From contig CAZQFV010000017.1 of NCBI GenBank assembly GCA_964592645.1, positions 306-64,305 of the forward strand: DNA of 64,000 nt, given 5' to 3'. The DNA is from an uncultured Chloroflexia bacterium. GTDB taxonomy: Bacteria; Chloroflexota; Chloroflexia; DTKN01. This document shows, one piece after another, positions 1 through 51,930 of this stretch; positions within the stretch are counted from its first letter, which is position 1, and each line of letters begins with the position of its first letter. The notes below the pieces were generated by a model. The model worked only from the letters and a program-made list of their open reading frames with translations. It searched no databases and was not told the DNA's origin. Made by a program: the position numbers and the translations under genes.

Positions 1-192
1 GGAAGCAGCGCGCACTGGGTGAACCATGCGGCGGGCTATCCGGGACGATTCGGATGGCAAGAGGGCTACGGGGCATTCTCGTTCAGCAAACGCTCGTTGG
101 CTGCGGTTGTGCGCTATGCCGTGGAACAGCGGCAGCGCCATGAAAGAGGCAAGTTGCTGCCGGAGATGGAGCGGATCGAGGCCGCGGAATGA
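1..192 (+). mobile_element. IS200/IS605-type (Y1, RAYT-like) transposase, C-terminal end only; the gene runs off the left edge
   Basis: Frame 1 is open from nt 1 to TGA 190-192 and reads ...GRFGWQEGYGAFSFSKRSLAAVVRYAVEQRQRHERGK... This resembles the conserved C-terminal 'WQ.GY.AFSVS...V..YI.NQ..HH' block of Y1 transposases. Only 63 codons are visible. Confidence 0.55.
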
Positions 193-366
193 GCCGACCG
201 ACCGCCGGAAGCTTGCCAGGTGCGCTCCAAAAGTTGTGGGCAGACAGTACGACGCCGGTTTCCCCACCTGGCCGGACTGGCGCTAGCCTCCGGCGGGTGC
301 GGGCCGGCGGGATTAGGCAGTCCCGGCAGCGCTGGCTGCCGTGCTGTAGGGCCAGGCCGACAAACC

Positions 367-516
367 GCCCGGGTTTTGCGCGGGGGCTCGTGGAACAACA
401 ATCGAGAGAACGGGCGTTCCGCGTACCGCAACAACGACAACCCCGAGAACGACAACGACAACGGGGGTTTTCGTTGTTGTTTAGCGGCCAATCGTTCTGC
501 GCCTGTGCGTGGATAG
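367..516 (+). pseudogene. Orphan 3' fragment of an FGE-sulfatase (SUMF1-like) domain gene
   Basis: The tail of ORF 220..516 reads RVLRGGSWNNNRENGRSAYRNNDNPENDNDNGGFRCCLAA, the canonical end of the FGE-sulfatase fold. Nothing upstream in that frame is FGE-like. The DNA is a close direct repeat of 3376-3500. Confidence 0.6.
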
Positions 517-752
517 CATACCCCGCCCCGCGGGGTGGCTATAGGGCCGGAATGTGGCCCATTCCCTTTGGGGATGGGCCGCGCGCGCCCCAGGAGAGAA
601 CGCCAGGCCTGGTCCTGCCGGCCCCCGTGGGCCGGCGAATATAGCCGCGGGCCCGGCCCCCTGTGGTAGGCCGCGCGCGGTTCGACGCTTGGGGCCGGGC
701 CCAACCAGAAGACGGCGCGCGGCCGGCGGCGTGAGCGTGAGGAGGACACCCG

Positions 753-3518
753 ATGACCGATCCCTATTCCCGCTACGAACAGGGCGTGGAGGAGCTGCTG
801 GCGCGCCTGGGGAAAGACCATCCCCAGTACGCCGCCGCCCTCGTCCAGCAGACCCGCCTCCTGGAGAACATCGCCTCTACCCGGCGCTACGGCCCGACCG
901 AGGAGCTGCGCCACGAGCGCGCCGAGGTCCTGGATCGCCTGCATGAGCTGGCGCTGGCGGCCGGCGCGCGGTCCTTCCTCGACCTGTGCCCGCCCGGCCC
1001 GCCGGAGGAGATCTCTCCCGCCGCCCTGCTCCCGGCCTACTACCGCGCCCTGGCCGCCGACTGCCGCCGGCTGCCCCTGGGCGTGGTGGCCCCCCGCTTT
1101 GTGGAGGCCGGCCCGGCGGACCGCGTGCCCCTGCCCGACGTCTACGTGGACCTGGACGTCCTGGCCCCGGCGCGCGAGGAGCAAGAGCGGGCCGGCAAAG
1201 CCTTCCTGGAACGGATGGCCCGCGGCGAGGGCCGCGAGCGCACCCCCCTCCTGGAGGCCATCGCCCACCCCCAGGTCACCCGCTTTGTGCTGTTGGGCGA
1301 CCCCGGCTCGGGCAAGACCACCTTTGTCAACTACCTGACCTACCTGCTGGCCGACGCCGCGGGCGCCGGCGGGGCGGCGCCGCTGCCGGCCGGCTCCCCC
1401 CTGGCCGGCCTCCTGCCGTTCCGCCTGGTGCTGCGCGAGGTGGGCGCCCGCTGCATCCCCGCCGCAGCGGCCCGGGGCGAAGCGCAGATGCTCTGGAACG
1501 CCCTCCGCGCCGACATCGCCGCCCGCCTGGGCGAGGAGGCCGCCCAAGCGCTCTTCCCCATGCTGCAGCAGCGCCTGCTGGGCGAGGGCGGCCTGGTGCT
1601 GCTGGACGGGCTGGACGAGGTGCCCGAGGCCGACCGGCGGCGACAGTGCCTACTGGAGGCGGTGGCCGACCTGGCCGGCCTGCTGCCGGCCGGCCGCAGC
1701 CGCGTCCTGGTCACGGCCCGGCCCTACGCCTACGCCGCGCCCCACTGGCGCCTGGCGGAATTCGCGACCCTGCTGCTGGCGCCCCTGGACGGGGCGCAGC
1801 AGGAACGCTTCATCGGGCGCTGGTACCAGGCCGTGCGCCCGGCGATGAAATGGGACGAGGCCACCGCTGCCGGGCGGGCCGGGCGGCTGCGGCAGGCGCT
1901 GGCCGAGCGGCCCTACCTGGCCGACCTGGCCAGCAGGCCGCTCCTCTTGACGCTGATGGCCACGCTGCACACCAGTTGGGGACAGCTCCCGGAGGACCGC
2001 GCCGACCTGTACGAGGAGACGGTCAAGCTGCTCCTCAGCCGCTGGCAGCGCGGCGGGGAAGCGCGTGGACCGGATGGCGAAGCGGTGCTCGATCCGGGCG
2101 TGGCCCGGGTGTTGGCGCTGGAGGAGGGCCGGGTGCGCCCGGCGCTGCACCGGTTGGCCTACACGGTGCACGAGCGCCAGCGGCAGAGCGGGGAGGCGGA
2201 GCGGCCGGCCGACATCGGCGCGGGCGAGGTGCTGGCCGCCTTTGCCCCGCTCCTGCCGGAGGACCTCAACCCGCGGCTGCTGGTGCGCTACCTGGAGACG
2301 CGGGCCGGCCTGCTCCTGGCCCGCGCCCCCGGGGTGTACGCCTTTCCGCACCGCTCCTTCCAGGAGTACCTGGCGGCCTGCTACCTGGCCGAGGAGACGG
2401 ACCTGGCCGCGGCGCTGCAGGAGCGCGTCTGGCAGGACCCGGCCTGGTGGCGGGAGGTCTTTTTGCTCGGCGTGGGCAAGGCCCGCCAGGGCGGACTGAG
2501 CTATGCCGTGCACGTGGTCAACACCCTGCTGCCCGAGGGGCCGGAAGAGGTGGCGGGGAAAAGCGCCACGCACTGGCAGGCGGCGGTGTTGGCCGGGCAG
2601 GCGCTGGCCGACCTGCGCTTTCCCGGCGTAGCCCAGGACAAGCCGCCCCTGCAAGCGGTGTTGAAGCGCGTCCAACGTTGGCTGGTGGCGCTGCTGGAGG
2701 CGCCCGCCGACCTGGCGCCGCGCGAGCGGGCCGCCGCCGGGGACGTGCTGGCCCTCCTGGGCGACCCACGCCCGGGCGTGGGGCTGGACGCGGCCGGCCT
2801 GCCGGACCTGGATTGGGTGGCGGTGCCGGCCGGCCCGTTTCGGATGGGGGATGATAGGAGCGGAGAAAGGGACGAGCGGCCGGCCCACGAGGTACACCTG
2901 CCGACCTTCCGCCTGGCCCGCTACCCGGTGACCAACGTCCAGTACGCCGCCTTTGCGCGGGCCACCGGGCGGATGTGGCGCGGGGCCGACTTTGCGCCGC
3001 GGCAGGCCCACCACCCGGCGGTCTATGTCACCTGGCACGACGCCGTAGCCTTTTGCGAGTGGCTGACGGCGCGCTGGCGCGAGGCCGGCCGGCTCGGGGC
3101 GGACGAGGTGGTGCGGCTGCCCACCGAGGCGGAGTGGGAAAGAGCCGCCCGGGGGACAGACGGGCGGGAATACCCTTGGGGAGAATGGGCCGCCGGCCGG
3201 GCCAACACCTTGGAGAGCGGGATCCACGCGACCAGCGCGGTCGGCTGTTTCGCCGCCTGGAACAGCCCTTGCGGCTGCGCCGACATGACCGGCAACGTCT
3301 GGGAGTGGTGCAGCAGCCTGTACAGGCCCTACCCGTACCGGGCGGACGATGGCCGGGAGAAGGCCGGGGCCGGCGGCAGCCGGGTTTTGCGCGGGGGCTC
3401 GTGGAGCGACACTCGAGAGGACGGGCGTTCCGCGTTCCGCGACAGCGACTTCCCCGGGCTCGACATCGACTTCGGGGGTTTTCGTTGTTGTTTAGCGGCC
3501 CGGCCGTTCTCTCCATAA
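753..3518 (+). CDS. STAND NTPase: N-terminal helical adaptor (EAD-like) + NACHT P-loop NTPase + helical repeats + C-terminal FGE-sulfatase domain
   Basis: 921-aa ORF. Walker A is RFVLLGDPGSGKTTFVNYL and Walker B is GGLVLLDGLDEV. The C-terminus has YPVTNVQYAAFARATG, VTWHDAVAFCEWL, RLPTEAEWERAARG and RVLRGGSW...GGFRCC, which is FGE-sulfatase. GAGGAGG lies 7 nt upstream of the ATG. Confidence 0.9.
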   Translation: MTDPYSRYEQGVEELLARLGKDHPQYAAALVQQTRLLENIASTRRYGPTEELRHERAEVLDRLHELALAAGARSFLDLCPPGPPEEISPAALLPAYYRALAADCRRLPLGVVAPRFVEAGPADRVPLPDVYVDLDVLAPAREEQERAGKAFLERMARGEGRERTPLLEAIAHPQVTRFVLLGDPGSGKTTFVNYLTYLLADAAGAGGAAPLPAGSPLAGLLPFRLVLREVGARCIPAAAARGEAQMLWNALRADIAARLGEEAAQALFPMLQQRLLGEGGLVLLDGLDEVPEADRRRQCLLEAVADLAGLLPAGRSRVLVTARPYAYAAPHWRLAEFATLLLAPLDGAQQERFIGRWYQAVRPAMKWDEATAAGRAGRLRQALAERPYLADLASRPLLLTLMATLHTSWGQLPEDRADLYEETVKLLLSRWQRGGEARGPDGEAVLDPGVARVLALEEGRVRPALHRLAYTVHERQRQSGEAERPADIGAGEVLAAFAPLLPEDLNPRLLVRYLETRAGLLLARAPGVYAFPHRSFQEYLAACYLAEETDLAAALQERVWQDPAWWREVFLLGVGKARQGGLSYAVHVVNTLLPEGPEEVAGKSATHWQAAVLAGQALADLRFPGVAQDKPPLQAVLKRVQRWLVALLEAPADLAPRERAAAGDVLALLGDPRPGVGLDAAGLPDLDWVAVPAGPFRMGDDRSGERDERPAHEVHLPTFRLARYPVTNVQYAAFARATGRMWRGADFAPRQAHHPAVYVTWHDAVAFCEWLTARWREAGRLGADEVVRLPTEAEWERAARGTDGREYPWGEWAAGRANTLESGIHATSAVGCFAAWNSPCGCADMTGNVWEWCSSLYRPYPYRADDGREKAGAGGSRVLRGGSWSDTREDGRSAFRDSDFPGLDIDFGGFRCCLAARPFSP

Positions 3519-3537
3519 TGCTGGTTGCTGGCTGCTG

Positions 3538-3566
3538 GGCCAATTCGGGCAGAGCCCGAATTGGCC
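3538..3566 (+). repeat. Perfect 13-bp-stem hairpin (GGCCAATTCGGGC aga GCCCGAATTGGCC)
   Basis: Read directly from the sequence, 20 nt after the NACHT stop codon. No T-run follows it. Confidence 0.8.
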
Positions 3567-3581
3567 TGCTGCGGGGGGAGT

Positions 3582-3609
3582 CCAGAGGGGGGCGAATGCC
3601 CCCCTCTGG
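3582..3609 (+). repeat. Perfect 12-bp-stem hairpin (CCAGAGGGGGGC gaat GCCCCCCTCTGG)
   Basis: Read directly. It is the second of three consecutive hairpins after the NACHT gene. Confidence 0.8.
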
Positions 3610-3610
3610 T

Positions 3611-3632
3611 GGCCGCGAAGCGGCCGATTTTT
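3611..3632 (+). terminator. Rho-independent terminator candidate
   Basis: GGCCGC-gaa-GCGGCC stem-loop followed immediately by GATTTTT. Confidence 0.6.
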
Positions 3633-3668
3633 GGAGGCTCCGCGGGAGGTAACGTTGCGAGGCGCGCG

Positions 3669-4334
3669 ATGACCGTCCAGATCGACGATGCCGGGTGGGG
3701 CTCCCTGGTCGGCTCCACCGTCATCGGGGCCTACCGCACCGAGACCGGGGAGTTTGCCTGCGTCGAGCTGCCGATGGCCTGTTTTCGCGGCGCGGCCTTT
3801 CGCCGCAAAGCCTATCTCGACGCCGTCGTCGCGGCCGTCCGCGAACTGGTGGAGCGGTTGGGCGTGGCGAAAAAGGAAACGGTGCAGGTCTGCTCCGGGT
3901 ACGTCCTGGAGCGGGCCCGGCAGTGGCTGCGCGGCCAGGGGTATCACGTCGAGGTCGGGCGCATCACCGGCCCGCTGCAGGAGCTGGTGGAGGCGGCCTT
4001 TGCCCAGACGCTGGAGCGCATCGGGTTCCATGGGCCGGCGGACGCCGCCCCCCATCCCGCCCGGGCCTTTTTCGCGGCGCTCACGTGGCTCAAAGGCGGC
4101 GACCCCACCGCCACGCGGGCCCGGCCGGAGCGGGAGCGCTGGGCCAAGACGGGGTGGCCCTCGTACCGCGCCTGGATTGGGCGGCGGGCAGATTCCGACC
4201 GCGCCGCAACCGCCGCGGGGCGCAGACCGAGAAGAGACTCCAAGCACGCGCCGCCGTCCCTGCGACAGGCTAAGGGCGATGCCTCGGCGGCACGGGGCCG
4301 CCCGCGCCGGCCCCGGCGCGGGGCGCAGCGTTAG
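3669..4334 (+). CDS. Hypothetical protein; the N-terminus carries an RNase HII-like 'IDDAGWGSLVG' motif and the tail is basic and Arg/Pro-rich
   Basis: ATG at 3669, 6 nt after GAGG. Reads MTVQIDDAGWGSLVGSTVIGAYRTETGEF... Lies between the NACHT and SIR2-CHAT genes. No confident family assignment by eye. Confidence 0.6.
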   Translation: MTVQIDDAGWGSLVGSTVIGAYRTETGEFACVELPMACFRGAAFRRKAYLDAVVAAVRELVERLGVAKKETVQVCSGYVLERARQWLRGQGYHVEVGRITGPLQELVEAAFAQTLERIGFHGPADAAPHPARAFFAALTWLKGGDPTATRARPERERWAKTGWPSYRAWIGRRADSDRAATAAGRRPRRDSKHAPPSLRQAKGDASAARGRPRRPRRGAQR

Positions 4335-4366
4335 CGGCCCGCGCCGGCCCGCCGGAGTCGGTACGG

Positions 4367-4512
4367 CGGAGGCGCGGAGAAAGGTCGGACGCCTCCGGCT
4401 ACGAGGTGCCAGCCCCGTTGGGGCTAAAACCAAGCCTGACGGTTCGGCTGTAGCCGCCGGCAGCGCCGGCGAAACGCAGGCCCGCAGGGCCTGCCATCTC
4501 GTAGCCGGAGGC
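4367..4512 (+). other. Highly structured GC-rich intergenic element (possible ncRNA, leader or REP-like unit)
   Basis: A 15-bp perfect inverted repeat (GCCTCCGGCTACGAG 4391-4405 / CTCGTAGCCGGAGGC 4498-4512) encloses three hairpins at 4411-4425, 4455-4471 and 4477-4493. An upstream CGGAGGCG (4367-4374) can pair instead with 4390-4397. Confidence 0.4.
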
Positions 4513-4636
4513 TTGCGAAACCCGGTCGGCTAAGATGACAAGCATGCGCCGCGATGCCGGGGGTGGGCGGCGGGGTCGGTTGGCGGCAGCCTCCGGCGGC
4601 GCCGGCCCCCAGCATAGCGCAAAGGAGCAAGACACG

Positions 4637-7132
4637 ATGGCGCAACACGACTACCAGGACTTGTACGACAAGCTCGCCCGCGGCCAACTGGCCCTCTTCC
4701 TCGGCGCCGACCTGCCACGGGCGGTCACCGGGCTGCCCGCGCGGGCCGAGCTGGCCCAGGGGCTGGCCGCGCGCCACGGGCTGGGCGCGGGCCTCTCGTG
4801 GGCCCAGGCCGCCCAGCGCGCCGCCCGCGGCGGGTTCGTCAACGACCTCATCCGCTACCTCGGCGACGAACTGGAGCCGCCGCGCCGCCGGCCGGCCCGC
4901 CTCCACGAGCTCATCGTCCGGCTCGGCGCGCCCGTCGTCCTCACCACCGCCTATGACGACCTGCTCAAGCTGGCCTATGAAAAGGCGGGAGTCGCCTTCA
5001 ACCATGTCGTGGACGATGCCGACGTGCCCTTTATCCAGGCCGGCCGGCCCACCCTGCTGCGCCTCTATGGGGCCCTCTCCCGACGAGGCAGCCTGGTCCT
5101 GACCGAGGACGACCAGTACGGCCTCCTGCGCGACCGGCGCAAGGAAGCGCTGCTTGGCGAGGTGCGCGGCGTGCTGGCCAAGCACACCATCCTCTTTCTC
5201 GGCTACGATCTGGCCGACCCCGACTTTCACTTTCTCTGGCGCGAGGTGCTGGAGCGGGCCGGCAAGTTCGCCCTGGGGGCCTACGCCGTCTGGCCGGGGC
5301 TGCCGGAGGGGGAGCGGCGGGTCTGGGAGGAGCGGCGGGTGCGGGTGATCGATGCAGAGCCGCTGGCCGTACTGGAGGCGTTGGTGGGGACGCGGCCGGC
5401 CCCGTCGCCGCCGGCGGCGACCCCCGCGGCCGCGCCCAAGTACGAGATTCACATCGGGCAAGGCACCGGCGTGGTGATCGGCGATGGCGCCCAGGTGAAC
5501 CAGCAGATCGGCGGCGAGGCCCCGCGAGCGGGACCGGCGGCGGTTCCCGCGGTTGGCGCCGGGCAAACGGGCCGTATGGACTACCCCCGCGGCTTTCAGA
5601 GATTGCAGGAGTATCTCGCTCAGACTGCGCCCGCCCGGATGGCCGAACTGGCGACGCTGGAGGAGCGCTTCCAGAAGAACGAACGCGCCGAACGGCTCTA
5701 TGGCGGCAGCGAGAATACCCGTCACGAGCGTTCGCAGATCATCCATGCCCTCAACGTGTTGGCGCTGGAGACCCTGGGGATCAGCTTCAACGACCTGTGC
5801 ATGGGAGTGCCGTATTCCGGCCGGCCGGCGGCAGCGCCGGGAACAATCGAGCCGTTGCCTACAACGGGGCCGGTACAGCAACCCGTGCCGGAGATCTCGG
5901 CCGCCCCGCGCATCCCCTTCCAACTACAGCTCACCCGGCGGGGCCAGCAGAAAGTGGAGGTCCGCGCCTTGCAGACCCCCCTGGGCGAGCCACACGCCGT
6001 AGTCCAGTTGCCCTACACCGAAGTCGAGTTGAGCGTCGTGCTCAAGGCGCTGCGGCTGCGGCAGTATACTCCGGAGACTTTTCCCGATGAGCAGCGCGAA
6101 ATCCTGGCGCAGTTGGGGTTCTTGCTGGCCGGCGACCAACTCGATCCGGCCATTTTGTGGCGTGTAGGGCAGACCCTGTACGACACCTTGATGGCGGGCG
6201 AGATCAATACGGCCTTTCAAATGGCCTTGAACCAAATCCCCGGCCAGGGGGTAGTTTCCCTGCAACTGCGCTTTGACGAGGACGCCGTCGAGTTGGCCCG
6301 CTACCCCTGGGAACTCCTCTACTGCCGACAGCCGCTGCTTCCCAGCGGGGCCGTCGAATTGACCCGCTATATCAGCTATGCCCAGGCGGCGTCTCCCCTG
6401 GGGGTCACTCCGCCCCTGCGCCTGCTGTACATCCAATCGCGCCCCAGGGGCGTCCCGACGCTCGCCAACACCGAGCAAAAGGTCGCCCGCCAAGCCCTGG
6501 CCCCACTCCAAGAAGAGGGACTGTTGCAGGTCGACACACTTCCCCGCCCCACCTTTGAAGGGCTGCTGGATTACCTGGAGTCCTATCCGGTCCACATCCT
6601 CCACTTTGACGGCCACGGGGTGTTTGCCCGCCGCTGTCCTGTATGCGGTGAGCTGAACGCCCCGACAGCAGAACGGTGCTGGGGGCAGAAGGGAGGCCGG
6701 GCCTGTGGCCGGCCGCTGGCCCAGATCGCTCCCCAGGGCTACCTGGCCTTCGTCGGTCCGGGGAGAAAGGTCGACCCGATCGGCAGCGTGGATCTGGCCA
6801 CGCTCCTGTCGCGCCGCGGGGTGCGCTTGGCCGTGCTCTCGGCCTGTTGGAGTGGGGCGGTGCGGGGCGAGACGCTGTTCGGCGGCGTGGCCCCGGCGCT
6901 GATCCAGGCCGGCCTGCCGGCCGTCGTCGCCACCCAACTGCCAATCGGCGTCGACGCGGCGGCCAGGTTCGCGCAGGGCTTCTACCGGGCCCTGTCGCGT
7001 TTCGAAACGCTTCCTGCTGCCGTCAACGCCGGGCGCATCCGTATTCTGAACACCCAAGAGTGGTTTATCCCCACCTTGTACCTGCGCAGCCAGGACAGCG
7101 AGGGTAGGCTCTTTGTCCGCCAAGGAGGGTAG
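4637..7132 (+). CDS. SIR2-like domain + helical adaptor (EAD-like) + CHAT (caspase-like) protease fusion protein
   Basis: ATG 4637 follows AAAGGAG (4621-4627). The N-terminus matches the SIR2_2 pattern: LALFLGADLP, VVLTTAYDDLL, LLRLYGAL, ILFLGYDLADPDF. The C-terminal CHAT dyad is HILHFDGHG (His) and RLAVLSACWSG (Cys). Confidence 0.9.
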   Translation: MAQHDYQDLYDKLARGQLALFLGADLPRAVTGLPARAELAQGLAARHGLGAGLSWAQAAQRAARGGFVNDLIRYLGDELEPPRRRPARLHELIVRLGAPVVLTTAYDDLLKLAYEKAGVAFNHVVDDADVPFIQAGRPTLLRLYGALSRRGSLVLTEDDQYGLLRDRRKEALLGEVRGVLAKHTILFLGYDLADPDFHFLWREVLERAGKFALGAYAVWPGLPEGERRVWEERRVRVIDAEPLAVLEALVGTRPAPSPPAATPAAAPKYEIHIGQGTGVVIGDGAQVNQQIGGEAPRAGPAAVPAVGAGQTGRMDYPRGFQRLQEYLAQTAPARMAELATLEERFQKNERAERLYGGSENTRHERSQIIHALNVLALETLGISFNDLCMGVPYSGRPAAAPGTIEPLPTTGPVQQPVPEISAAPRIPFQLQLTRRGQQKVEVRALQTPLGEPHAVVQLPYTEVELSVVLKALRLRQYTPETFPDEQREILAQLGFLLAGDQLDPAILWRVGQTLYDTLMAGEINTAFQMALNQIPGQGVVSLQLRFDEDAVELARYPWELLYCRQPLLPSGAVELTRYISYAQAASPLGVTPPLRLLYIQSRPRGVPTLANTEQKVARQALAPLQEEGLLQVDTLPRPTFEGLLDYLESYPVHILHFDGHGVFARRCPVCGELNAPTAERCWGQKGGRACGRPLAQIAPQGYLAFVGPGRKVDPIGSVDLATLLSRRGVRLAVLSACWSGAVRGETLFGGVAPALIQAGLPAVVATQLPIGVDAAARFAQGFYRALSRFETLPAAVNAGRIRILNTQEWFIPTLYLRSQDSEGRLFVRQGG

Positions 7133-7136
7133 AACG

Positions 7137-7496
7137 ATGGCGATTACGCTGCGGAAACTGATCGACCAGGTCCGGGATGAGCTCTTGTCCGCTCCCCAGG
7201 AACCCACGCCGGAGGCGCTGTACCCCTTTCTGTTTGTCGAGGAAGTCGAGTTGGAACTCAACGTGGCCATTACGGCGGGAGGCAAGGGCGGCGGCAAGGT
7301 CAGCATCCAGATTGTGGAGCTGGGTGGGGAGACCGCCTACTCCCGCGAGCAGACCCACCGGATCAAGGTCAAGATGACCCCGCTGCTGACCAAGGACGAG
7401 GTGCGCGCGCAGCTGCAGCAGGACAAAGGGGTGTGGGACCGTATCCAACACCTGGCCCTGGTCGCCGCGACGAAAGAGATTCCGCTCGCCGGATAG
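7137..7496 (+). CDS. trypco2 (trypsin-co-occurring domain 2) family protein
   Basis: ATG 7137 lies 7 nt after AAGGAGGG and 4 nt after the upstream stop. LYPFLFVEEVELELNVAITAGGKGGGKVSIQIVELGGETAYSREQTHRIKVKMTP fits the trypco2 signature (F.V.EVELEL.V....G..G......G......TH.IK..L.P). Confidence 0.8.
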   Translation: MAITLRKLIDQVRDELLSAPQEPTPEALYPFLFVEEVELELNVAITAGGKGGGKVSIQIVELGGETAYSREQTHRIKVKMTPLLTKDEVRAQLQQDKGVWDRIQHLALVAATKEIPLAG

Positions 7497-7533
7497 GGCG
7501 ACGCAGCGCTGGCGGCCCTATTCCCTCCCCGGT

Positions 7534-8052
7534 GTGGCCTACTGTGCCCGCTGCGGGGCTCCTCTTTACGGGCAGACGACCCGCGGGCGACGCTGCCTGT
7601 ACTGTTCACGCCGCCGCGACCACGGGAGGGGCCCGGCGCGGGGTGGTTGCGACCTGCCGGGGCTCCATGCTGACAAATGTGAGGCCGCAGGGGCCCGCCT
7701 GTTACAGTTGATCGAGATCCCCGCCGGGGACAAGGAGCAGATCCTGTCCGGGATCGACACCGCACCCCGTCGCAACGGTCCGACGCTGGCTTCGCTAAAG
7801 ATGCAGCGCATCAAGTTGCTCTTCAAGGAGGGAGACATAAGCCGTGAGGAATACCTGGCGGACAAGGCGCAGATTCAGGCCGAGATGGCCCGTGTATCTC
7901 CACCGACGAGTCCGGACCTGACCCGGGCGGCGGACATCCTCACCGACCTGGGCCGGGTGTGGTCCGAGGCTACCAGTGAGCGCACGCAGAAGGTTCTGCT
8001 CCGAGGGGTTTTTGAGGCCATCTTTTTCGATGGTGCAATGATCCCCGATTGA
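7534..8052 (+). pseudogene. Large serine recombinase, C-terminal fragment only (zinc-ribbon + coiled-coil part)
   Basis: YCARCGAPLYGQTTRGRRCLYCSRRRDHG...C then ...KLLFKEGDISREEYLADKAQIQAEMARV... matches the recombinase zinc-beta-ribbon and coiled-coil tail. The catalytic resolvase and recombinase domains are absent upstream. Adjacent to the 3' end of tRNA-Asp. Confidence 0.6.
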
Positions 8053-8113
8053 ACGCAGTGAGGCCCCAGGCGGCGATGCTGCCGTTCTGGGACCTCATCA
8101 AAAATCGCAGGTG

Positions 8114-8187
8114 CGGGGCCGAGGGGATTCGAACCCCCGATCTCAGCCTTGACAGGGCTGCATGTTAGGCCTCTACACCACGGCCCC
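8114..8187 (-). tRNA. tRNA-Asp (GTC)
   Basis: Hand-folded 74-nt cloverleaf. Acceptor GGGGCCG/CGGCCCC, anticodon stem CAGCC/GGCTG, loop CTGTCAA, T-arm GGGGG-TTCGAAT-CCCCT, discriminator G. CCA is not encoded. Confidence 0.9.
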
Positions 8188-8198
8188 ACGCGCCCACA

Positions 8199-8227
8199 AT
8201 GATACCACAGGTGCTGGGAGGTGTCAA
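8199..8227 (-). promoter_or_regulatory. Sigma-70-type promoter of tRNA-Asp
   Basis: On the minus strand: TTGACA, 17 nt, TATCAT. The -10 element ends 11 nt before the mature tRNA 5' end. Confidence 0.6.
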
Positions 8228-8476
8228 ATAGCCGGTAGCCCGCGCAGGGCGCCATCGCGCTCGAAACGGCACCGCCCCCGCAGCGATGTGACCTGTCCCC
8301 AGCCTCCCTCCCCCCTCTCGCGCCACGCGGCCAAAGCGGCCGGAGAATTGCGGGTCGTCGAGATGGCGACGCGGCGCGGTACCGAAGGCCGTCTTGCCGC
8401 CGGCGGCAGGAGCGATATAGAGGTGGACAGCCATCCCGCTTTCTCCTGGAATGTCCCGGCCGGCGCTGGGCGCGGT

Positions 8477-9688
8477 TCAGGGCCCGCCGACGACCTGCAG
8501 CGGGACCGGGGCAAAGGTCAGCAAAAAGATCACGAGCATGGCCACGGCCACGGCCACCTGCCAGGGCTTGAGGGCGGTCAGGTCGTCCAGGGGCACGGCC
8601 GGCCGGCGGCCGACGAGCAGGATCAGCGCCACCCAGAGGAGCCAGCCGATCCACAGGAGGCTCAGCAGGGCCAGGGCCAGGACGACGGCCCCGGTGATGT
8701 AGCGGGCGCTCCGCCCGAAGAGGGCGTAGGCGATGTGCCCGCCGTCCAGCGTGCCGGCGGGGACCAGGTTCAGGCCGGTGACCATCAGGCCGGCCCAGCC
8801 GGCGTAGGCGATCTGGTGGATGAAGACGTCGACGCCGGTGCCGGGCGGGCAGCCGCGCAGGGCGGCGTGCAGCAGCTCCCAGAAGGTTGCCGGGCCGGCC
8901 CCGCAGCGCGGCAGGAAGTAGCCGAAGTAGGCCGTCTTGATCAGGGCGTAGAGGAGCGAGTTGCCTTCCAGGATAAACATCTCGCCGGACGGCGAGGGCT
9001 GGACGGTGGAGAGCGACAGGCCCAGGATCAACGCCGGGATGGCCACGACCAGGCCGGCGACGGGGCCGGCCAGCCCCAGGGCCAGCAGGTGCCGGCGGTT
9101 CTGCGGCGGGGCCTTCATCTGGATAAAGGCCCCCATGGTGCCCAGCGGGGTGAACGGCAAGGGGATGAAGTAGGGCAGGGTGGCGGGGATGCCCAGCCGG
9201 CGGGAGACAATGTAGTGTCCCAGCTCGTGGGCCAGCAGGATGAGCATCAGCGTGACGGCAAAAGGCCAGCCCGACAGCACGTTCTGCAGGATGGGGCGCT
9301 CTGGAAGCCATTCCATCCCGGCGGTCATGGTGGAGACGACGGTGAGGGCGATCAGGACCAGCGCCAGGGCCACGCGCGGCTGCTGCATGGTCGGCAGCTC
9401 GCCGGGGACGGCCCGGATCACGGTGCGCCCTTCCTCCTCCCGGAAGAGGGGCGTGTAGCCGATGGTCTGGAAGCGCCCCCGCAGGATGGGGTAGGCCGCG
9501 GCGGTGTCCATGAGAAAGTGGCCGTAGAGGTGGACGACGCCGGGGTGATCGCGGTCGAGCAGGGCCTGGCCGATGGTAAAGACGCCGGCCACGGCCTCGT
9601 ACAGGGCGGAAGTGAGATCAGGCGTGGGCGCATTGGACTCGGACAAACGGGCCTCCTGGGTCGAAACGGCTCCTCTTGGTTGGGCCAA
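8477..9688 (-). CDS. Site-2 protease family (peptidase M50) membrane metalloprotease
   Basis: HELGHYIVSRRLG zinc motif within multiple hydrophobic helices. 403-aa ORF. Confidence 0.85.
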   Translation of the reverse strand: MAQPRGAVSTQEARLSESNAPTPDLTSALYEAVAGVFTIGQALLDRDHPGVVHLYGHFLMDTAAAYPILRGRFQTIGYTPLFREEEGRTVIRAVPGELPTMQQPRVALALVLIALTVVSTMTAGMEWLPERPILQNVLSGWPFAVTLMLILLAHELGHYIVSRRLGIPATLPYFIPLPFTPLGTMGAFIQMKAPPQNRRHLLALGLAGPVAGLVVAIPALILGLSLSTVQPSPSGEMFILEGNSLLYALIKTAYFGYFLPRCGAGPATFWELLHAALRGCPPGTGVDVFIHQIAYAGWAGLMVTGLNLVPAGTLDGGHIAYALFGRSARYITGAVVLALALLSLLWIGWLLWVALILLVGRRPAVPLDDLTALKPWQVAVAVAMLVIFLLTFAPVPLQVVGGP

Positions 9689-16694: not shown

Positions 16695-17447
16695 ATGTGC
16701 GGAAGTCTCGAAGGCAGGGTAGCGCTGGTCACCGGGGCGGCGCGCGGCATCGGCCGGGCCATTGCCCAGCGGCTGGCGGCGATGGGTGCGGCGGTGGCGA
16801 TCAACGACCTGGCCCCCCAGGAGGCCATCGACGCCGTCGTCGCCGAGATCGTGGCGGCCGGCGGGAAGGCCGTCGGCGTCCGGGCCAATGTCACGGTCGC
16901 GGCAGAGGTGGCGGCAATGGTCGACCGGGTGGTGCAGGAGCTGGGCGATCTGCACATCCTGGTGAACAACGCCGGCATCACCCGCGATATGCTCCTGATG
17001 CGCCTGAGCGAGGAGGATTGGGACGCCGTCCTGACGACCAACCTCAAGGGCGCTTTCCTCTGCACCAAGGCGGCGGTGCGGCCGATGATGAAGGCCCGCT
17101 GGGGCCGCATCGTCAACCTCTCCTCGGTGGTCGGTCTGGCGGGGAACGCCGGCCAGGCCAACTACGCGGCGGCCAAGGCCGGCCTGATCGGTCTGACCCG
17201 CAGCGCCGCCCGGGAGCTCGGTTCGCGCGGCATCACGGCCAATGCCGTCGCCCCCGGCTTTATCCTCACCGACATGACGGCCCGGCTGCCGGACAAGATC
17301 AAGGAGGAGGCCCAGGCCCAGACGCCGGCCGGCCGTCTGGGGACGCCCGAAGACGTCGCCGCGGCGGTGGCCTTTCTCTGCTCGCCGGAGGCCGAGTTCA
17401 TCACCGGGCAGGTGTTGAGCGTGGATGGGGGGATGGTGATGCGGTAA
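16695..17447 (+). CDS. SDR-family oxidoreductase, FabG-like paralog
   Basis: VTGAARGIGRA, NNAGI, YAAAKAG. GAGGAGG lies 5 nt upstream of ATG 16695. Confidence 0.85.
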   Translation: MCGSLEGRVALVTGAARGIGRAIAQRLAAMGAAVAINDLAPQEAIDAVVAEIVAAGGKAVGVRANVTVAAEVAAMVDRVVQELGDLHILVNNAGITRDMLLMRLSEEDWDAVLTTNLKGAFLCTKAAVRPMMKARWGRIVNLSSVVGLAGNAGQANYAAAKAGLIGLTRSAARELGSRGITANAVAPGFILTDMTARLPDKIKEEAQAQTPAGRLGTPEDVAAAVAFLCSPEAEFITGQVLSVDGGMVMR

Positions 17448-18699
17448 CGGGCTCCGGCCAGGGCTCGCGCACCGCCAGGCCCAGCGCCTCTCGCACCTCG
17501 GCCACGACAAAGAACGACCCGCAGGCGCAGACCAGCCCTTCCGCCCCGGCCCAGGCGCGGGCCCGCCGCAGGGCCTGGGATACCTGGGGAACCACCTCGC
17601 AGGGGACGCCGCGGGCGGACCACAGCCGCGCCAGCAGCGCCGGGTCGACGGCGCGGTGGTGCCGGGCTTGGGATAGGATGGCCCCATCGCAGCGGGGGGC
17701 CAGAGCGGCGGCGATGCCCTCTAGGTCCTTGTCGGCGGAGCAGCCCAGGAGCAGGATGCGGGGGCGGGCGGTCCACTGATGGTCCAGGGCGGCGGCCAGC
17801 GCCGCGGCGGCGGCGGGGTTGTGGGCGGCGTCGACCAGGGTGAGCGGCCGGCCGGCGACGACCTCCAGGCGTCCCGGCCAGTGGACCTGGGCCAGCCCGC
17901 GGCGCAGCGCTTCACCGCCGATGTTCCAGCCCACCTGCTGCAGCGCCTGCGCGGCGGCCCAGGCCAGGCCGGCGTTGACCGCCTGGTGGAGGCCGGGGAG
18001 TCCCGGGATCGGCATATCGGCGGGGGAGCTCCAGCGCAGCACTGCGCCCACCGTGCGGCAGTGTTCGGCGATGACCGTTTGCGCGGCCGGCTCCTGCGGC
18101 GCGCTGATGGCAATCCCGCCGGGGGGGACGGCGCCGGCCTTTTCGGCGGCGATCGCCGGCAGGGTGGCGCCGAGGTAGGCCTGGTGGTCCAGGGCGATGG
18201 GGGTGAGCAGGGTCAGGAGGGGGGACAGGGCGTGGGTGGCGTCGCTGCGTCCGCCCATGCCGGCCTCGACGATGGCGATGTCCGTACCGCGTTGGGCAAA
18301 GTGGGCCATCGCCAGGGCGGTGAGGCCCTCGAAGAGGGTGGCGGGGCCCAGGTCGTCCCACTCCAGGCTTTTCAGCAGCAGGGGTTGGAGGGCGCGCAGG
18401 GCGGCCCGAAAGGCCATCCGGGAGATCGGCGCGCCGTCGACCTGGATGCGCTCCCGTGGGCTGTGCAGGTGCGGCGAGGTAAAGAGCCCGACCCGGTAGC
18501 CGGCGCACTGCAGCACGGAGGCCAACATCGCCGCCGTGGACCCTTTGCCCTTGGTGCCGATCACGCGGACGAGGGGCCGCTTTCGGTCGGGAGCCCCGAG
18601 CAGGTCGAGGAGCCGGCGGGCCCGGTGGGGGCTATCCTGGGGATGGCGCGGAAAGGCTTCTTTGCGCCGGGCATAGCGCTGCAGGTAGGCAGGTAGCAT
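17401..18699 (-). CDS. folC: Folylpolyglutamate synthase / dihydrofolate synthase
   Basis: VIGTKGKGSTAAMLASVL P-loop, SPHLHSPRERI, Mur-ligase-like C-terminus. The start is at MLPAYLQRY. The longer 823-aa ORF is an upstream read-through artefact. Confidence 0.85.
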   Translation of the reverse strand: MLPAYLQRYARRKEAFPRHPQDSPHRARRLLDLLGAPDRKRPLVRVIGTKGKGSTAAMLASVLQCAGYRVGLFTSPHLHSPRERIQVDGAPISRMAFRAALRALQPLLLKSLEWDDLGPATLFEGLTALAMAHFAQRGTDIAIVEAGMGGRSDATHALSPLLTLLTPIALDHQAYLGATLPAIAAEKAGAVPPGGIAISAPQEPAAQTVIAEHCRTVGAVLRWSSPADMPIPGLPGLHQAVNAGLAWAAAQALQQVGWNIGGEALRRGLAQVHWPGRLEVVAGRPLTLVDAAHNPAAAAALAAALDHQWTARPRILLLGCSADKDLEGIAAALAPRCDGAILSQARHHRAVDPALLARLWSARGVPCEVVPQVSQALRRARAWAGAEGLVCACGSFFVVAEVREALGLAVREPWPEPVTASPSPHPRSTPAR

Positions 18700-49839: not shown

Positions 49840-51930
49840 CTAAACCACCACCCGCGCATTGGGGTGCCCATAGACACTGTAGGCCAACCATGTGGGGTCG
49901 CCCGCCTCCCGCGCCGCCAGCCGGCCGGCCCGCACCGCCGCCGCCAGCGCCTCCCCCGCCAACAGCCGCTCGTAGAACGCCCGCGCAAAGTCCAGCGCCG
50001 GCCCGTCGGTCACCGACCACAGGGGGGCGATGAACAGCCCGGCCCCGGCGCTGATCAGCCGGTTGGTCCAGCCGCCGATGCGCGTCAGCCCCCACCCTTG
50101 CCGGCCGGCGTGACAGGCGTTGAAAACGAATCCGGGACGCTTCTGCCGAATGTGCCGCTCAATTGCCGGTCCGACGATCGCTTCGGGAGCCAAGGGCTGC
50201 AGGTCTTGCAGCCAGATGGCCGAGTCGGCGTCGGGCGCGGTGGGGTAAAAGTTGCCGTGCGCGGCCACGTGCAGCCAGTCGTAGCCGCCCTGCTTCAACA
50301 GGCCGATCACGTTGGGCCATGTGGGCGGCAGAGGGCTCACATCGCTCACCCTATGTCGCGCAATGAGTTCCCCCAGCACTTGGCGCTCCACCTGGGCGGC
50401 CGGCAGGTCGGAGTCGGTCGGCGCCAGGCAGGCCAGGGTCTCCAAGGTCAAACGGACGGGTGGAGCCTCATGGCCGTTGCCCCGGGCATCGCGGCGCAGC
50501 CACCGGGTCAGCCCCATGGTCAGACACCAGGGCGTCTCGTCCTCCCAATCCTCGTCGTAGGGCCAGACCAACTCCCAGGGGATGTAGGGTTCGTCGGAGA
50601 TGATGAGCAGGCTCTTGTCGCGCCAGGCGGCGCGTTCCGCGGCATAGACCGTCTTGAGCTCCTGGGGAATCAGGTTCTTCCAGAGGTTCTGTCCGAGTTC
50701 CTGGAGGCGCGCGTCGGCCGTTTCGGGCGGCACAACGCGCTGCTTGCCTACGACGGCCGCGACCGTCGGATCCAACCGTTCGGCCAGTACGGTCAGGATG
50801 TCATAGAGGCGCGTCGTCTGGGCATCCAGATCGCCCTCTAGGTAAACGGGGGCAAAGGTGCGCCCGGCCTCGCCGGCCCGGCGCAGGGTAAAGACCAGGG
50901 CCGGCTGCTGCCGGAAACGCTCGTAGGTGATGGCGAGCTCCAGGTCCGGCGGCGCTGCGCCGGGCTCGATGCGCACAGCCTGGGCCAGTTTGGATTCGGT
51001 GGTCTCGCTGACCTCGTAGGGGGTGACCTCGACCGGTACGCTGGCCGTGCCCATGCGGTTACCGTTTTGGAAGAAATCGAGGTTGACGCGGGTGGGGCCG
51101 ACTTCCCGCGGACGCAAGTAAAAGACGAGGGGGGGACTATCCGTGTCCGGAGGGAGGGTAACCTCTTGTTCCGGTGCGTTTAGGAGGTCAAAAGCCGGGG
51201 CTTCGATCCGCACGGCGACCGCCGTGTCCCGCTGCAGGGCTAACGTTTCGGCGGCGGCGCTGCGCTCAGGTGGGGAAAGCGTTAGCTGGACGACCACGGC
51301 GATGCGCGGAGTCTCCACCCACACCCGGCGCGGGCAGGTGATGTCGGTGTAGCGGGTGACGGTGGCCGCGGCGGCCCTTTCCCCCGCGATCAGCCGGTCC
51401 AGGATGGGCGGAGCGCCGCGGATGAGGAGGCCTCGGGCGCGCTCGGCCGGGGGCCGGCCGTCGAGCGCCTGGCGGGCGGCTACCGCCCGCTCCTGCGCTT
51501 GCCGGGCCTGCTCCTGGGCCTGCCGCAGCGCGCCCTCCAGCCCCTGCGCGAGGGCGGTTGGCAGTAGTTCCCGGGGCGCCCCCGGCAGCCCTTCTGCAAC
51601 CCATTCGTCTTGCCACGCCGCGCCCAGCCGCTCGCGCAGCGCGCCCACCAGCCCGGCGGCCTGCTCTCGATCCTGCTCCGTGGTCGTCCCCCGGGCCGGG
51701 GAAAAGAGCAGGGGCGGCGTCTCGCCGGGGCGGTAGAGCAGCAGCGGGGCGTCGGCCATCGCCTGGTGGCCACAGTGCGGGCAGGGCAGGGCGTGTAACG
51801 ACCCGCTGCGGATGCGCTCGAGCAGGTCCGGCCGCTCGGCGGTGTCCACGATTAGCCAGACCTCGGTCCGGAATTGCTGCTTGCACCGGGGACAGGTCCA
51901 TTCGACTTCCTGGGATAGGCTATGGGCCAT
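49840..51930 (-). CDS. CpXC-type zinc-ribbon + CHAT (caspase-like) domain protein
   Basis: N-terminal CPRC...CPHC. The C-terminal CHAT dyad is WLHVAAHGNF (His) and FVFNACHAGRQ (Cys). AAGGAG lies upstream. Confidence 0.85.
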   Translation of the reverse strand: MAHSLSQEVEWTCPRCKQQFRTEVWLIVDTAERPDLLERIRSGSLHALPCPHCGHQAMADAPLLLYRPGETPPLLFSPARGTTTEQDREQAAGLVGALRERLGAAWQDEWVAEGLPGAPRELLPTALAQGLEGALRQAQEQARQAQERAVAARQALDGRPPAERARGLLIRGAPPILDRLIAGERAAAATVTRYTDITCPRRVWVETPRIAVVVQLTLSPPERSAAAETLALQRDTAVAVRIEAPAFDLLNAPEQEVTLPPDTDSPPLVFYLRPREVGPTRVNLDFFQNGNRMGTASVPVEVTPYEVSETTESKLAQAVRIEPGAAPPDLELAITYERFRQQPALVFTLRRAGEAGRTFAPVYLEGDLDAQTTRLYDILTVLAERLDPTVAAVVGKQRVVPPETADARLQELGQNLWKNLIPQELKTVYAAERAAWRDKSLLIISDEPYIPWELVWPYDEDWEDETPWCLTMGLTRWLRRDARGNGHEAPPVRLTLETLACLAPTDSDLPAAQVERQVLGELIARHRVSDVSPLPPTWPNVIGLLKQGGYDWLHVAAHGNFYPTAPDADSAIWLQDLQPLAPEAIVGPAIERHIRQKRPGFVFNACHAGRQGWGLTRIGGWTNRLISAGAGLFIAPLWSVTDGPALDFARAFYERLLAGEALAAAVRAGRLAAREAGDPTWLAYSVYGHPNARVVV

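Follow-up and report, generated by a model that had tools for sequence, protein, structure and literature searches.

Here, we examined a four-gene locus in a 64-kb stretch of DNA from an uncultured Chloroflexia bacterium (contig CAZQFV010000017.1; the whole stretch of 64,000 nucleotides [nt] is called the window below). Four co-oriented open reading frames (ORFs), all intact, occupy positions 753 to 7496 of the window. The locus probably encodes a sensor resembling NOD-like receptors (NLRs) that has been diversified by a diversity-generating retroelement (DGR) and is coupled to a protease-activated pore toxin, the whole lying on what is left of an integrative element at a tRNA-Asp gene. Gene 1 (753 to 3518, + strand; 921 amino acids [aa]) encodes the sensor/switch protein, with NACHT and FGE-sulfatase domains; gene 2 (3669 to 4334, +) encodes a protein with an RNase HII-like fold; gene 3 (4637 to 7132, +) combines a SIR2-like domain, a helical effector-associated domain (EAD), and a CHAT protease; and gene 4 (7137 to 7496, +; 119 aa) encodes a Trypco2/Pepco protein. 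A sequence-only reading of this DNA had assigned NACHT plus FGE, SIR2_2 plus CHAT, and Trypco2 to these genes, and a Pfam profile search recovered every one of the domains where that reading had placed them. Its central proposal, a conflict module in which a signal transduction ATPase with numerous domains (STAND) is coupled through an adaptor to CHAT and Trypco2, is supported by the data given below; the repeat pair left by the DGR and the loss of the SIR2 catalytic residues were absent from it. The parts of the scheme that can be read directly from the locus are adenine-specific rewriting, a shared adaptor, intact NACHT Walker motifs and CHAT dyad, and a dead SIR2 domain; the steps of the mechanism are drawn from homology and from the "EAD principle."

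Mutagenic retrohoming by a DGR is defined by differences between a template repeat (TR) and a variable repeat (VR) that are confined to adenines. In the window, a noncoding TR (369 to 489, +) and a VR (3380 to 3500, +) form a 121-nt direct repeat with 88% identity. All 15 mismatches fall on TR adenines, of which there are 28 in the 121 nt (hypergeometric P = 7 × 10−12), and the two copies are identical over the 121 nt apart from such adenine-templated positions. Relative to the reading frame of gene 1, nine differences lie at codon position 2, six at position 1, and none at position 3; every substitution changes an amino acid, and 12 residues on the ligand-binding surface of the C-type-lectin/FGE fold are recoded. 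Read as protein, the TR is Asn-rich and AAC-rich (NNNRENGRSAYRNNDNPENDNDN), versus SDTREDGRSAFRDSDFPGLDIDF for the VR. Because TR and VR differ at template adenines only, we conclude that a DGR has copied the TR into the 3' end of gene 1 in the past. At the end of gene 1, the VR spans 41 codons (aa 876 to 916), and the first 37 of these fall inside the Pfam FGE-sulfatase match (aa 687 to 912 of 921). Since the VR sits in the FGE domain, a sensor role for this domain is supported, and more strongly than was guessed when it was first proposed as a ligand sensor. Just 3' of the VR (3538 to 3626, +), perfect hairpins begin 38 and 82 nt past its end (3538 to 3550 paired with 3554 to 3566, 13 bp with a 3-nt loop; 3582 to 3593 paired with 3598 to 3609, 12 bp), followed by a terminator-like stem at 3610 to 3626 and a T-run. 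These structures are candidates for the DGR target-recognition structure, for the terminator of gene 1, or for both.

The TR lies just upstream of the STAND-FGE gene, a position equivalent to that in related DGR cassettes. At locus L036 (related loci are given L numbers here), the closest canonical cassette, which carries close homologs of gene 1, the order is NACHT-FGE, reverse transcriptase (RT), bAvd, TR, NACHT-FGE, and the VR differences fall on TR adenines in 14 of 14 and 13 of 13 cases. The L003 cassette reads SIR2-nSTAND1-FGE, RT, bAvd, TR, with 19 of 20 differences at adenines. The window TR is also 76 to 81% identical to five cyanobacterial plasmid segments. One of them, on pANA02 of Anabaena sp. 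90 (78% identical), directly follows genes annotated as avd and RNA-directed DNA polymerase and stands beside two FGE-family genes; among the five, the annotation of this plasmid is the only one that shows a DGR. A search of the JGI metagenomes with an exact 76-nt TR pattern gave 0 matches. Among the related loci scanned, an RT near FGE genes was detected only in L003/L039, L036, and L064, and an RT "elsewhere in the genome" has been reported for such systems (Kaur et al. 2021, PMC8195603). Directly after the second NACHT-FGE target of the L036 DGR lies a gene for a TCAD2 (ternary-complex-associated domain 2) protein (17021 to 17524 of that contig), which hints at other downstream partners for the NACHT-FGE sensor family.

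Gene 1 has both a switch and a sensor domain. The NACHT match (PF05729; aa 178 to 358, nt 1284 to 1826) reaches 30.6 bits (cutoff, 26.7), with an intact Walker A motif (GDPGSGKTT; lysine K188 at nt 1314) and an intact Walker B motif (LLDGLDEV), and the C-terminal domain, of the FGE/C-type-lectin fold (nt 2811 to 3488), matches FGE-sulfatase with an E value of 1 × 10−52. More than 2,274 homologs were found at E ≤ 1 × 10−10, covering about 90% of the protein. Nearly all of the best 120 of these leave the N-terminal ~10% of gene 1 uncovered, and in all six NACHT-FGE homologs that were read directly the N terminus differs from that of gene 1. It is this N-terminal segment that is shared with the effector: aa 8 to 91 of gene 1 match aa ~316 to 399 of gene 3 (36% identity; BLASTP E = 1 × 10−9), which bears out the adaptor originally placed at the start of gene 1. 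The adaptor is ~75 residues long, lies at nt 774 to 1025 in gene 1 and nt 5576 to 5833 in gene 3, and is predicted to form a three-helix bundle (predicted local distance difference test score [pLDDT] of 88). Because the NACHT-FGE homologs read directly carry a different N terminus, the adaptor looks specific to the pairing of gene 1 with gene 3.

A profile search with the helical domain retrieved 1,303 representative clusters. Among 50 longer members, the fused partners were SIR2_2 (11 members), TIR (10), AAA_35 (6), caspase (5), PNP (5), FGE (2), CHAT (2), and NACHT (2), as well as kinase, trypsin, EAD7, EAD8, and bDLD1. By published criteria, an EAD has one copy on an NTPase and further copies on varied effectors (Kaur et al. 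2020, PMC7159879); the helical domain shows this distribution, yet it is none of the EAD families named in Pfam (EAD1 to EAD11, bDLD). Neither adaptor copy matched any Pfam model even at E ≤ 10 (the models included at least EAD7, EAD8, and bDLD1), and where these three models do match relatives, they do so at another position in the protein. The predicted bundle is a generic fold: a Foldseek search of the helical domain against the PDB returned no significant match, with no Death-domain structure among the matches. At locus L009, the same domain heads a multipass membrane protein (3523 to 4539) immediately after genes for SIR2-EAD-EAD7-CHAT and Trypco2; through this adaptor, the protein may be recruited as a second effector, one that acts on the membrane. 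Another member of the family (P0247; 893 aa) carries four tandem copies of the helical domain together with TPR repeats and could be a hub or scaffold.

The effector end of the locus consists of the CHAT domain of gene 3 and the protein encoded by gene 4. The ORF of gene 3 opens at 4535, and homologs support a start at 4637. Its CHAT domain (PF12770; nt 6161 to 7063; E = 8 × 10−28) retains the catalytic residues named in the sequence-only reading, His660 (nt 6614, in HFDGHG) and Cys737 (nt 6845, in LSAC), and both are invariant in nine homologs. Between them lies an invariant zinc-ribbon-like insert with four cysteines (CxxC...C...C; aa 667 to 690, nt 6635 to 6706), with a weak match to Pfam DUF7577. 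The ATG of gene 4 lies 4 nt past the stop codon of gene 3, as first described, and the Trypco2 match (PF19631) is strong (E = 4 × 10−20; 72.4 bits against a cutoff of 24.2). Trypco2 adjoins CHAT in the same orientation in the window, in L001 and L002 (same organism), and in L003, L006, and L009, as well as in all 16 metagenomic loci with a detectable Trypco2 (5 downstream and 11 upstream of CHAT). Adjacency was counted here from domain coordinates, and a stop-to-stop ORF count is an undercount. Co-location in other genomes, on which the original proposal depended, was thus observed, since CHAT-Trypco2 and STAND-effector adjacencies both recur.

Pepco (a name that covers Trypco1 and Trypco2) has been reported to be a preassembled beta-barrel that becomes membrane permeabilizing once its partner protease removes a C-terminal tail of ~2 kDa; FGE-type sensors are among its listed partners, and the homolog that was studied acts in phage-triggered cell death (bioRxiv 10.1101/2025.11.14.688446). 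An alignment of three distinct sequences shows no variation at residues I3, L5, L8, I9, Q11, V12, and E15 to L17 of gene 4 or in its central strand-like segments. By analogy, the N-terminal pattern would fit an amphipathic helix as in SsPepco, and the central segments the β-core of that protein. A stretch of 37 residues follows the Trypco2 domain, the last ~20 of which are poorly conserved. Given these likenesses, gene 4 is predicted to encode a latent pore-forming toxin that is freed by cleavage of its C-terminal tail. Because one Pepco homolog has been shown to be a protease-activated pore toxin, the CHAT domain probably licenses Trypco2, and Trypco2 would do the killing. The role of mere partner to which Trypco2 had at first been assigned therefore needs revision: going by its studied Pepco homolog, the protein that kills is probably Trypco2 itself, and CHAT would activate it.

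In contrast, the SIR2-like domain of gene 3 (nt 4637 to 5416) appears to be a pseudoenzyme. The sequence-only reading took gene 3 as a dual NADase and protease effector, an idea that can be stated in full as follows: SIR2 depletes NAD+ and CHAT cleaves proteins, giving two abortive-infection outputs, with Trypco2 and gene 2 as accessories. In its favor, the Pfam SIR2_2 match is significant (E = 2 × 10−20), PADLOC reports weak matches to the SIR2 profiles of ThsA, DSR1/2, and LmuA, and the SIR2 fold and the motifs TEDD and LGY.L.D are conserved under purifying selection. However, the NAD loop has lost its glycine (GAG to GAD), Ala stands in for the catalytic Asn, and Tyr stands in for the catalytic His. 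Of the proteins with solved structures, the closest to this domain is DSR2 (E = 5 × 10−9), in which N133 and H171 are needed for NADase activity; in the alignment, ITTNYD (N133) of DSR2 corresponds to TTAYD and LLKVHG (H171) to LRLYG. The deposited chain with the best score, 8wfn, itself has Ala in place of both catalytic residues. In alignments with ThsA and KomC, gene 3 reads GAD-LP where they have the NAD-binding loop GAG. The Ala/Tyr state is fixed across the clade, being found in 41 of 53 relatives, and the Asn/His pair is kept in one outlier only. The His of the EDDHY motif was considered as a rescue of SIR2 catalysis and rejected, since gene 3 has Gln at that residue. Gene 2, the supposed accessory, belongs to mobile-element backbones. 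Given a SIR2 domain without its catalytic residues, NADase activity and an NAD-consuming second output are unlikely, and we regard the dual effector as a whole as highly improbable. None of the nine closest homologs departs from the motifs GADL, TTAYD, and LYG, and for this reason we take the altered domain to be under purifying selection for a role other than NADase activity.

What this role might be is suggested by the company that the dead SIR2 domain keeps. In relatives whose domain is about 45 to 55% identical, the fused modules are CHAT, caspase, trypsin, TIR, Mrr-type nuclease, nucleoside phosphorylase, WD40, and AAA_35, whereas nSTAND1(-HEAT)-FGE sensors begin with copies that are more divergent. 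In about 11 independent loci (L003/L039, L012, L014, L016, L017, L025, L026, L040, L042, L046, and L052), a gene for a SIR2-effector fusion lies within a few kilobases of a SIR2-nSTAND(-FGE) gene. Between SIR2 and the effector, relatives carry EAD7, EAD8, or bDLD1 where gene 3 has the helical domain. We read the dead SIR2 as an adaptor because this distribution, on an NTPase as well as on varied effectors, matches the definition of an EAD; judged by domain content, a second docking or oligomerization module is its most likely function. A more specific version holds that the SIR2 fold has turned into a homotypic adaptor, that is, an enzyme-derived EAD, which would give gene 3 two distinct docking modules (the dead SIR2 and the helical EAD), such that one CHAT-Pepco cassette can be triggered by two classes of retroelement-diversified sensors, EAD-NACHT-FGE and SIR2-nSTAND-FGE. 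We put this forward tentatively, as a possibility with the balance against it.

Taken together, the reading that we prefer, in which an NLR-like sensor diversified by a DGR is coupled to a pore toxin under protease control, would work as follows. An invader (or nonself) molecule bound at the variable tip of the FGE domain would release NTP-dependent oligomerization of the NACHT domain, and the clustered N-terminal adaptors of gene 1 would recruit gene 3 through homotypic adaptor contacts. The CHAT protease would then be switched on by induced proximity and would clip the C-terminal tail of the cotranslated Trypco2/Pepco protein, whose preformed beta-barrel would open a membrane pore and kill the infected cell. 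Docking through the dead SIR2 domain would allow SIR2-nSTAND-FGE sensors, such as those found beside its homologs, to drive the same protease-pore cassette.

Several observations weigh against this scheme. No RT or Avd was found in the 64-kb window by tblastn with the L003 proteins, and a tnpA-like gene of IS200/IS605 type, directly upstream of the TR, occupies the place where related DGR loci carry avd. For these two reasons, the DGR could be remote, interrupted, or extinct, and the tnpA-like gene may mark the insertion of an insertion sequence (IS) into the DGR cassette. No population data on VR variability were found, and present activity of the DGR, and with it current diversification, is unproven. 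Given the terminator-like hairpin at 3610 to 3626, gene 1 may be transcribed separately from the rest of the locus. Cleavage of Pepco has been demonstrated for a serine-protease partner and not for CHAT, and the adaptor role of the dead SIR2 is drawn from the co-distribution of domains alone. The integrase that flanks the locus is truncated, and the island is decaying. Finally, PADLOC and NCBIfam place neither gene 1 nor gene 4 in any catalogued defense system. The PADLOC scan called for in the sequence-only reading returned no system-level match: genes 1, 2, and 4 lacked any match in PADLOC v2, gene 3 had weak domain-level matches only, and the matches in NCBIfam were all subthreshold.

Some of these observations invite the view that the locus is a decaying relic, in which the DGR is dead (its RT lost, its cassette interrupted by an IS), the island is immobilized, and the adjacent genes no longer cooperate. 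The missing RT and Avd, the tnpA-like gene upstream of the TR, the truncated integrase, and the 400 nt that, compared with the L006 contig, are inserted between genes 2 and 3 would all fit such decay. Nevertheless, the four ORFs are intact and their catalytic motifs complete, and the identity of TR and VR outside adenine-templated sites over 121 nt argues for recent homing. The order of gene 3, gene 4, and integrase fragment has also been assembled independently from other samples. As for the RT, its scarcity near related loci and the remote RT reported by Kaur et al. (2021) make its absence from the window a weaker sign of decay. On balance, we find a relic improbable.

The same architecture could instead serve a purpose other than antiviral defense, namely, kin/nonkin discrimination or developmental cell death in filamentous Chloroflexota, comparable to heterokaryon incompatibility controlled by fungal NLRs. 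The host range is compatible with this view, since 21 of the 22 loci found among GTDB representative genomes come from Chloroflexota (the exception is from Polyangia). The alternative was raised by Doré et al. for DGR-diversified STAND sensors (PMC10907252), and NCBIfam gives a weak match to HetF, a CHAT protease of heterocyst cell division. However, a mobile-element remnant sited at a tRNA gene and a mosaic of rapidly exchanged modules are typical of defense islands; the effector partners TIR, PNP, Mrr, caspase, and trypsin are the usual anti-invader set; and the cell death in which the studied Pepco homolog takes part is triggered by phage. A nonantiviral function is therefore unlikely, to about the same degree as a relic, and a sensor coupled to a protease-activated pore toxin of antiviral use remains the reading that we favor.

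The locus is an instance of a known but experimentally untested class. Adaptor-coupled STAND systems have been predicted computationally, as the sequence-only reading noted: Kaur et al. (2021, PMC8195603) described EAD-coupled STAND-FGS sensors with associated DGRs, and in multicellular bacteria, Doré et al. (2024, PMC10907252) found STAND-CLec "antigen sensors" diversified by DGRs, with mention of Trypco2 and CHAT at loci of this type; their clade 5D loci are among the closest to ours. With these systems, our locus shares an N-terminal EAD, a NACHT or nSTAND NTPase, a C-terminal FGE/CLec domain that contains the VR, adenine-only differences from the TR, a neighboring protein in which the same EAD is fused to a peptidase, the occurrence of Trypco2 and CHAT, and a multicellular or filamentous host. 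It differs from them in that RT and Avd are missing within the 64-kb window and the EAD has no Pfam match. In the main text of the two papers, we found no mention of an extra dead SIR2 module on the effector. New here are the SIR2 pseudoenzyme with an adaptor-like distribution, a widespread adaptor without a Pfam match, and the arrangement of sensor, CHAT, and Pepco in trans.

Other known systems resemble single parts of the locus. Like the Pepco-protease modules (Evans et al. 2025, bioRxiv 10.1101/2025.11.14.688446), it has a small protein (119 aa here, 117 there) encoded beside a protease, with conserved N-terminal residues fitting an amphipathic helix and a C-terminal tail after the Trypco2 domain; in the studied case, however, cleavage is by a trypsin-like Avs4 and falls after Ile97, whereas here the protease is of the CHAT cysteine type and is encoded as a polypeptide separate from the STAND sensor. 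With the antiviral STAND proteins Avs and bNACHT, it has in common the three-part layout, with a STAND NTPase between an effector or adaptor and a C-terminal sensor, as well as the presumed oligomerization upon ligand binding; those proteins, however, are single chains with TPR-like repeat sensors, whereas here the sensor is a retroelement-diversified lectin fold and the effector would be recruited in trans. The SIR2_2 fold is that of the NADase effectors ThsA, DSR1/DSR2, KomC, and SIR2-HerA, from which the gene 3 domain departs by the replaced GAG, Asn, and His and by an adaptor-like distribution, fused to sensors and to many unrelated effectors. Finally, the His-Cys dyad and the expected activation of a toxin by site-specific cleavage recall other CHAT and caspase-like proteases (SAVED-CHAT of type III CRISPR, EACC1-caspase, and the proteases of bacterial gasdermins). 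Here, in contrast, activation is proposed to come from a STAND sensor and adaptors rather than from cyclic oligoadenylate, and a four-Cys zinc ribbon is inserted in the protease.

Gene 2 does not appear to be part of the module. It is real and conserved, with 70 homologs of about 195 aa that share the motif QIDDAGWG. No Pfam domain was found in gene 2 or in any of these homologs, and PHROGs has no family for gene 2 or gene 4. An AlphaFold 2 (AF2) model of high confidence (pLDDT 91.6) has an RNase H-like fold by Foldseek, with archaeal RNase HII (1i39; template modeling [TM] score of 0.60) as the best global structural match. Distant homologs sit beside ParB, TraI, TraE, and TrbI genes or beside genes for integrase, SSB, ALP, and Prim-Pol, and gene 2 is missing from more distant loci that have the same system (L003 type). 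Because the family belongs to mobile-element backbones and L003-type loci lack it, gene 2 is probably a passenger from the backbone of the element integrated at the tRNA-Asp gene, lying outside the defense module, of which it had been counted a component. That gene 2 might assist the DGR by removing its RNA template was considered and rejected as the main reading, since the family occurs in DGR-free conjugative and integrative backbones and there are loci of the system without it.

The surroundings of the four genes point to an integrative element. Downstream of gene 4, the fragment at 7534 to 8052 (+) encodes a zinc ribbon and coiled coil from the C-terminal end of a large serine integrase (Pfam Zn_ribbon_recom; positions 376 to 556 of the 651 in the PHROG 95 profile), and this C-terminal part is all that the interval between gene 4 and tRNA-Asp holds of the integrase. 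The fragment is what remains of the integrative element by which the locus was carried. The tRNA-Asp(GTC) gene (8113 to 8187, − strand), identified by ARAGORN and scoring 64 bits with the Rfam tRNA model, is the probable integration site and confirms the tRNA-linked island of the original proposal; in a search of positions 1 to 9000 with Rfam, the tRNA model alone matched. Just upstream of tRNA-Asp lies a near-consensus sigma-70-type promoter (8199 to 8227, −; TTGACA, 17-nt spacer, TATCAT, extended TG). At the other end, positions 1 to 192 (+) hold the C-terminal end of the tnpA-like gene (tblastn to an annotated tnpA, E = 4 × 10−5; no Pfam match for the 63-aa fragment), which is context and lies outside the system. 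A second CHAT protein is encoded in the window at 49840 to 51930 (−; 696 aa; Pfam CHAT, E = 5.5 × 10−18), with an N-terminal CpXC zinc-ribbon domain (E = 1.3 × 10−14) and an architecture unrelated to that of gene 3.

Comparison with other contigs points to exchange within the locus. The L006 contig, from an uncultured Chloroflexia, is otherwise collinear with positions 3599 to 7486 of the window, and DNA identity to it is graded, from 97.6% in gene 2 through 87.6% in the SIR2 domain to 68% over the EAD, CHAT, and Trypco2. This mosaic gradient suggests recombinational swapping of the effector end. Missing from L006, which has 38 nt at that place, are ~400 nt in the gap between genes 2 and 3 (4186 to 4592). 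This segment holds a 32-nt inverted repeat (4385 to 4416 and 4487 to 4518), has no other copy in the window, and gives gene 2 an Arg-rich C-terminal tail unlike that of its L006 counterpart; possible identities are a small insertion element and a structured RNA. Logan contigs from the same organism (L001, L002, L032, and L033) break near ~3598 and ~4495 to 4524 and never reach gene 1. The breaks flank gene 2, near the VR and hairpins and near the inserted segment, and are compatible with population heterogeneity or with repeats, being evidence of neither.

If the scheme is correct, one compact locus would join three ideas hitherto studied apart: targeted hypermutation of an immune receptor by a DGR, NLR-type, apoptosome-like assembly through adaptors, and protease-licensed pore formation with a logic like that of gasdermin or perforin. 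We know of no experimental demonstration of invader recognition for any DGR-diversified STAND sensor, and the locus would offer a tractable test case. Two of the domains matter beyond it. An adaptor of about 1,300 representative clusters is not covered by Pfam, and a large SIR2-like clade that defense pipelines annotate as NADases is without the catalytic machinery, which bears both on annotation and on the evolution of enzymes into scaffolds. Should the dead SIR2 prove to be a homotypic adaptor, filamentous Chloroflexota would possess a combinatorially wired, somatically diversifying immune receptor network, with a second class of sensors encoded elsewhere in the genome.

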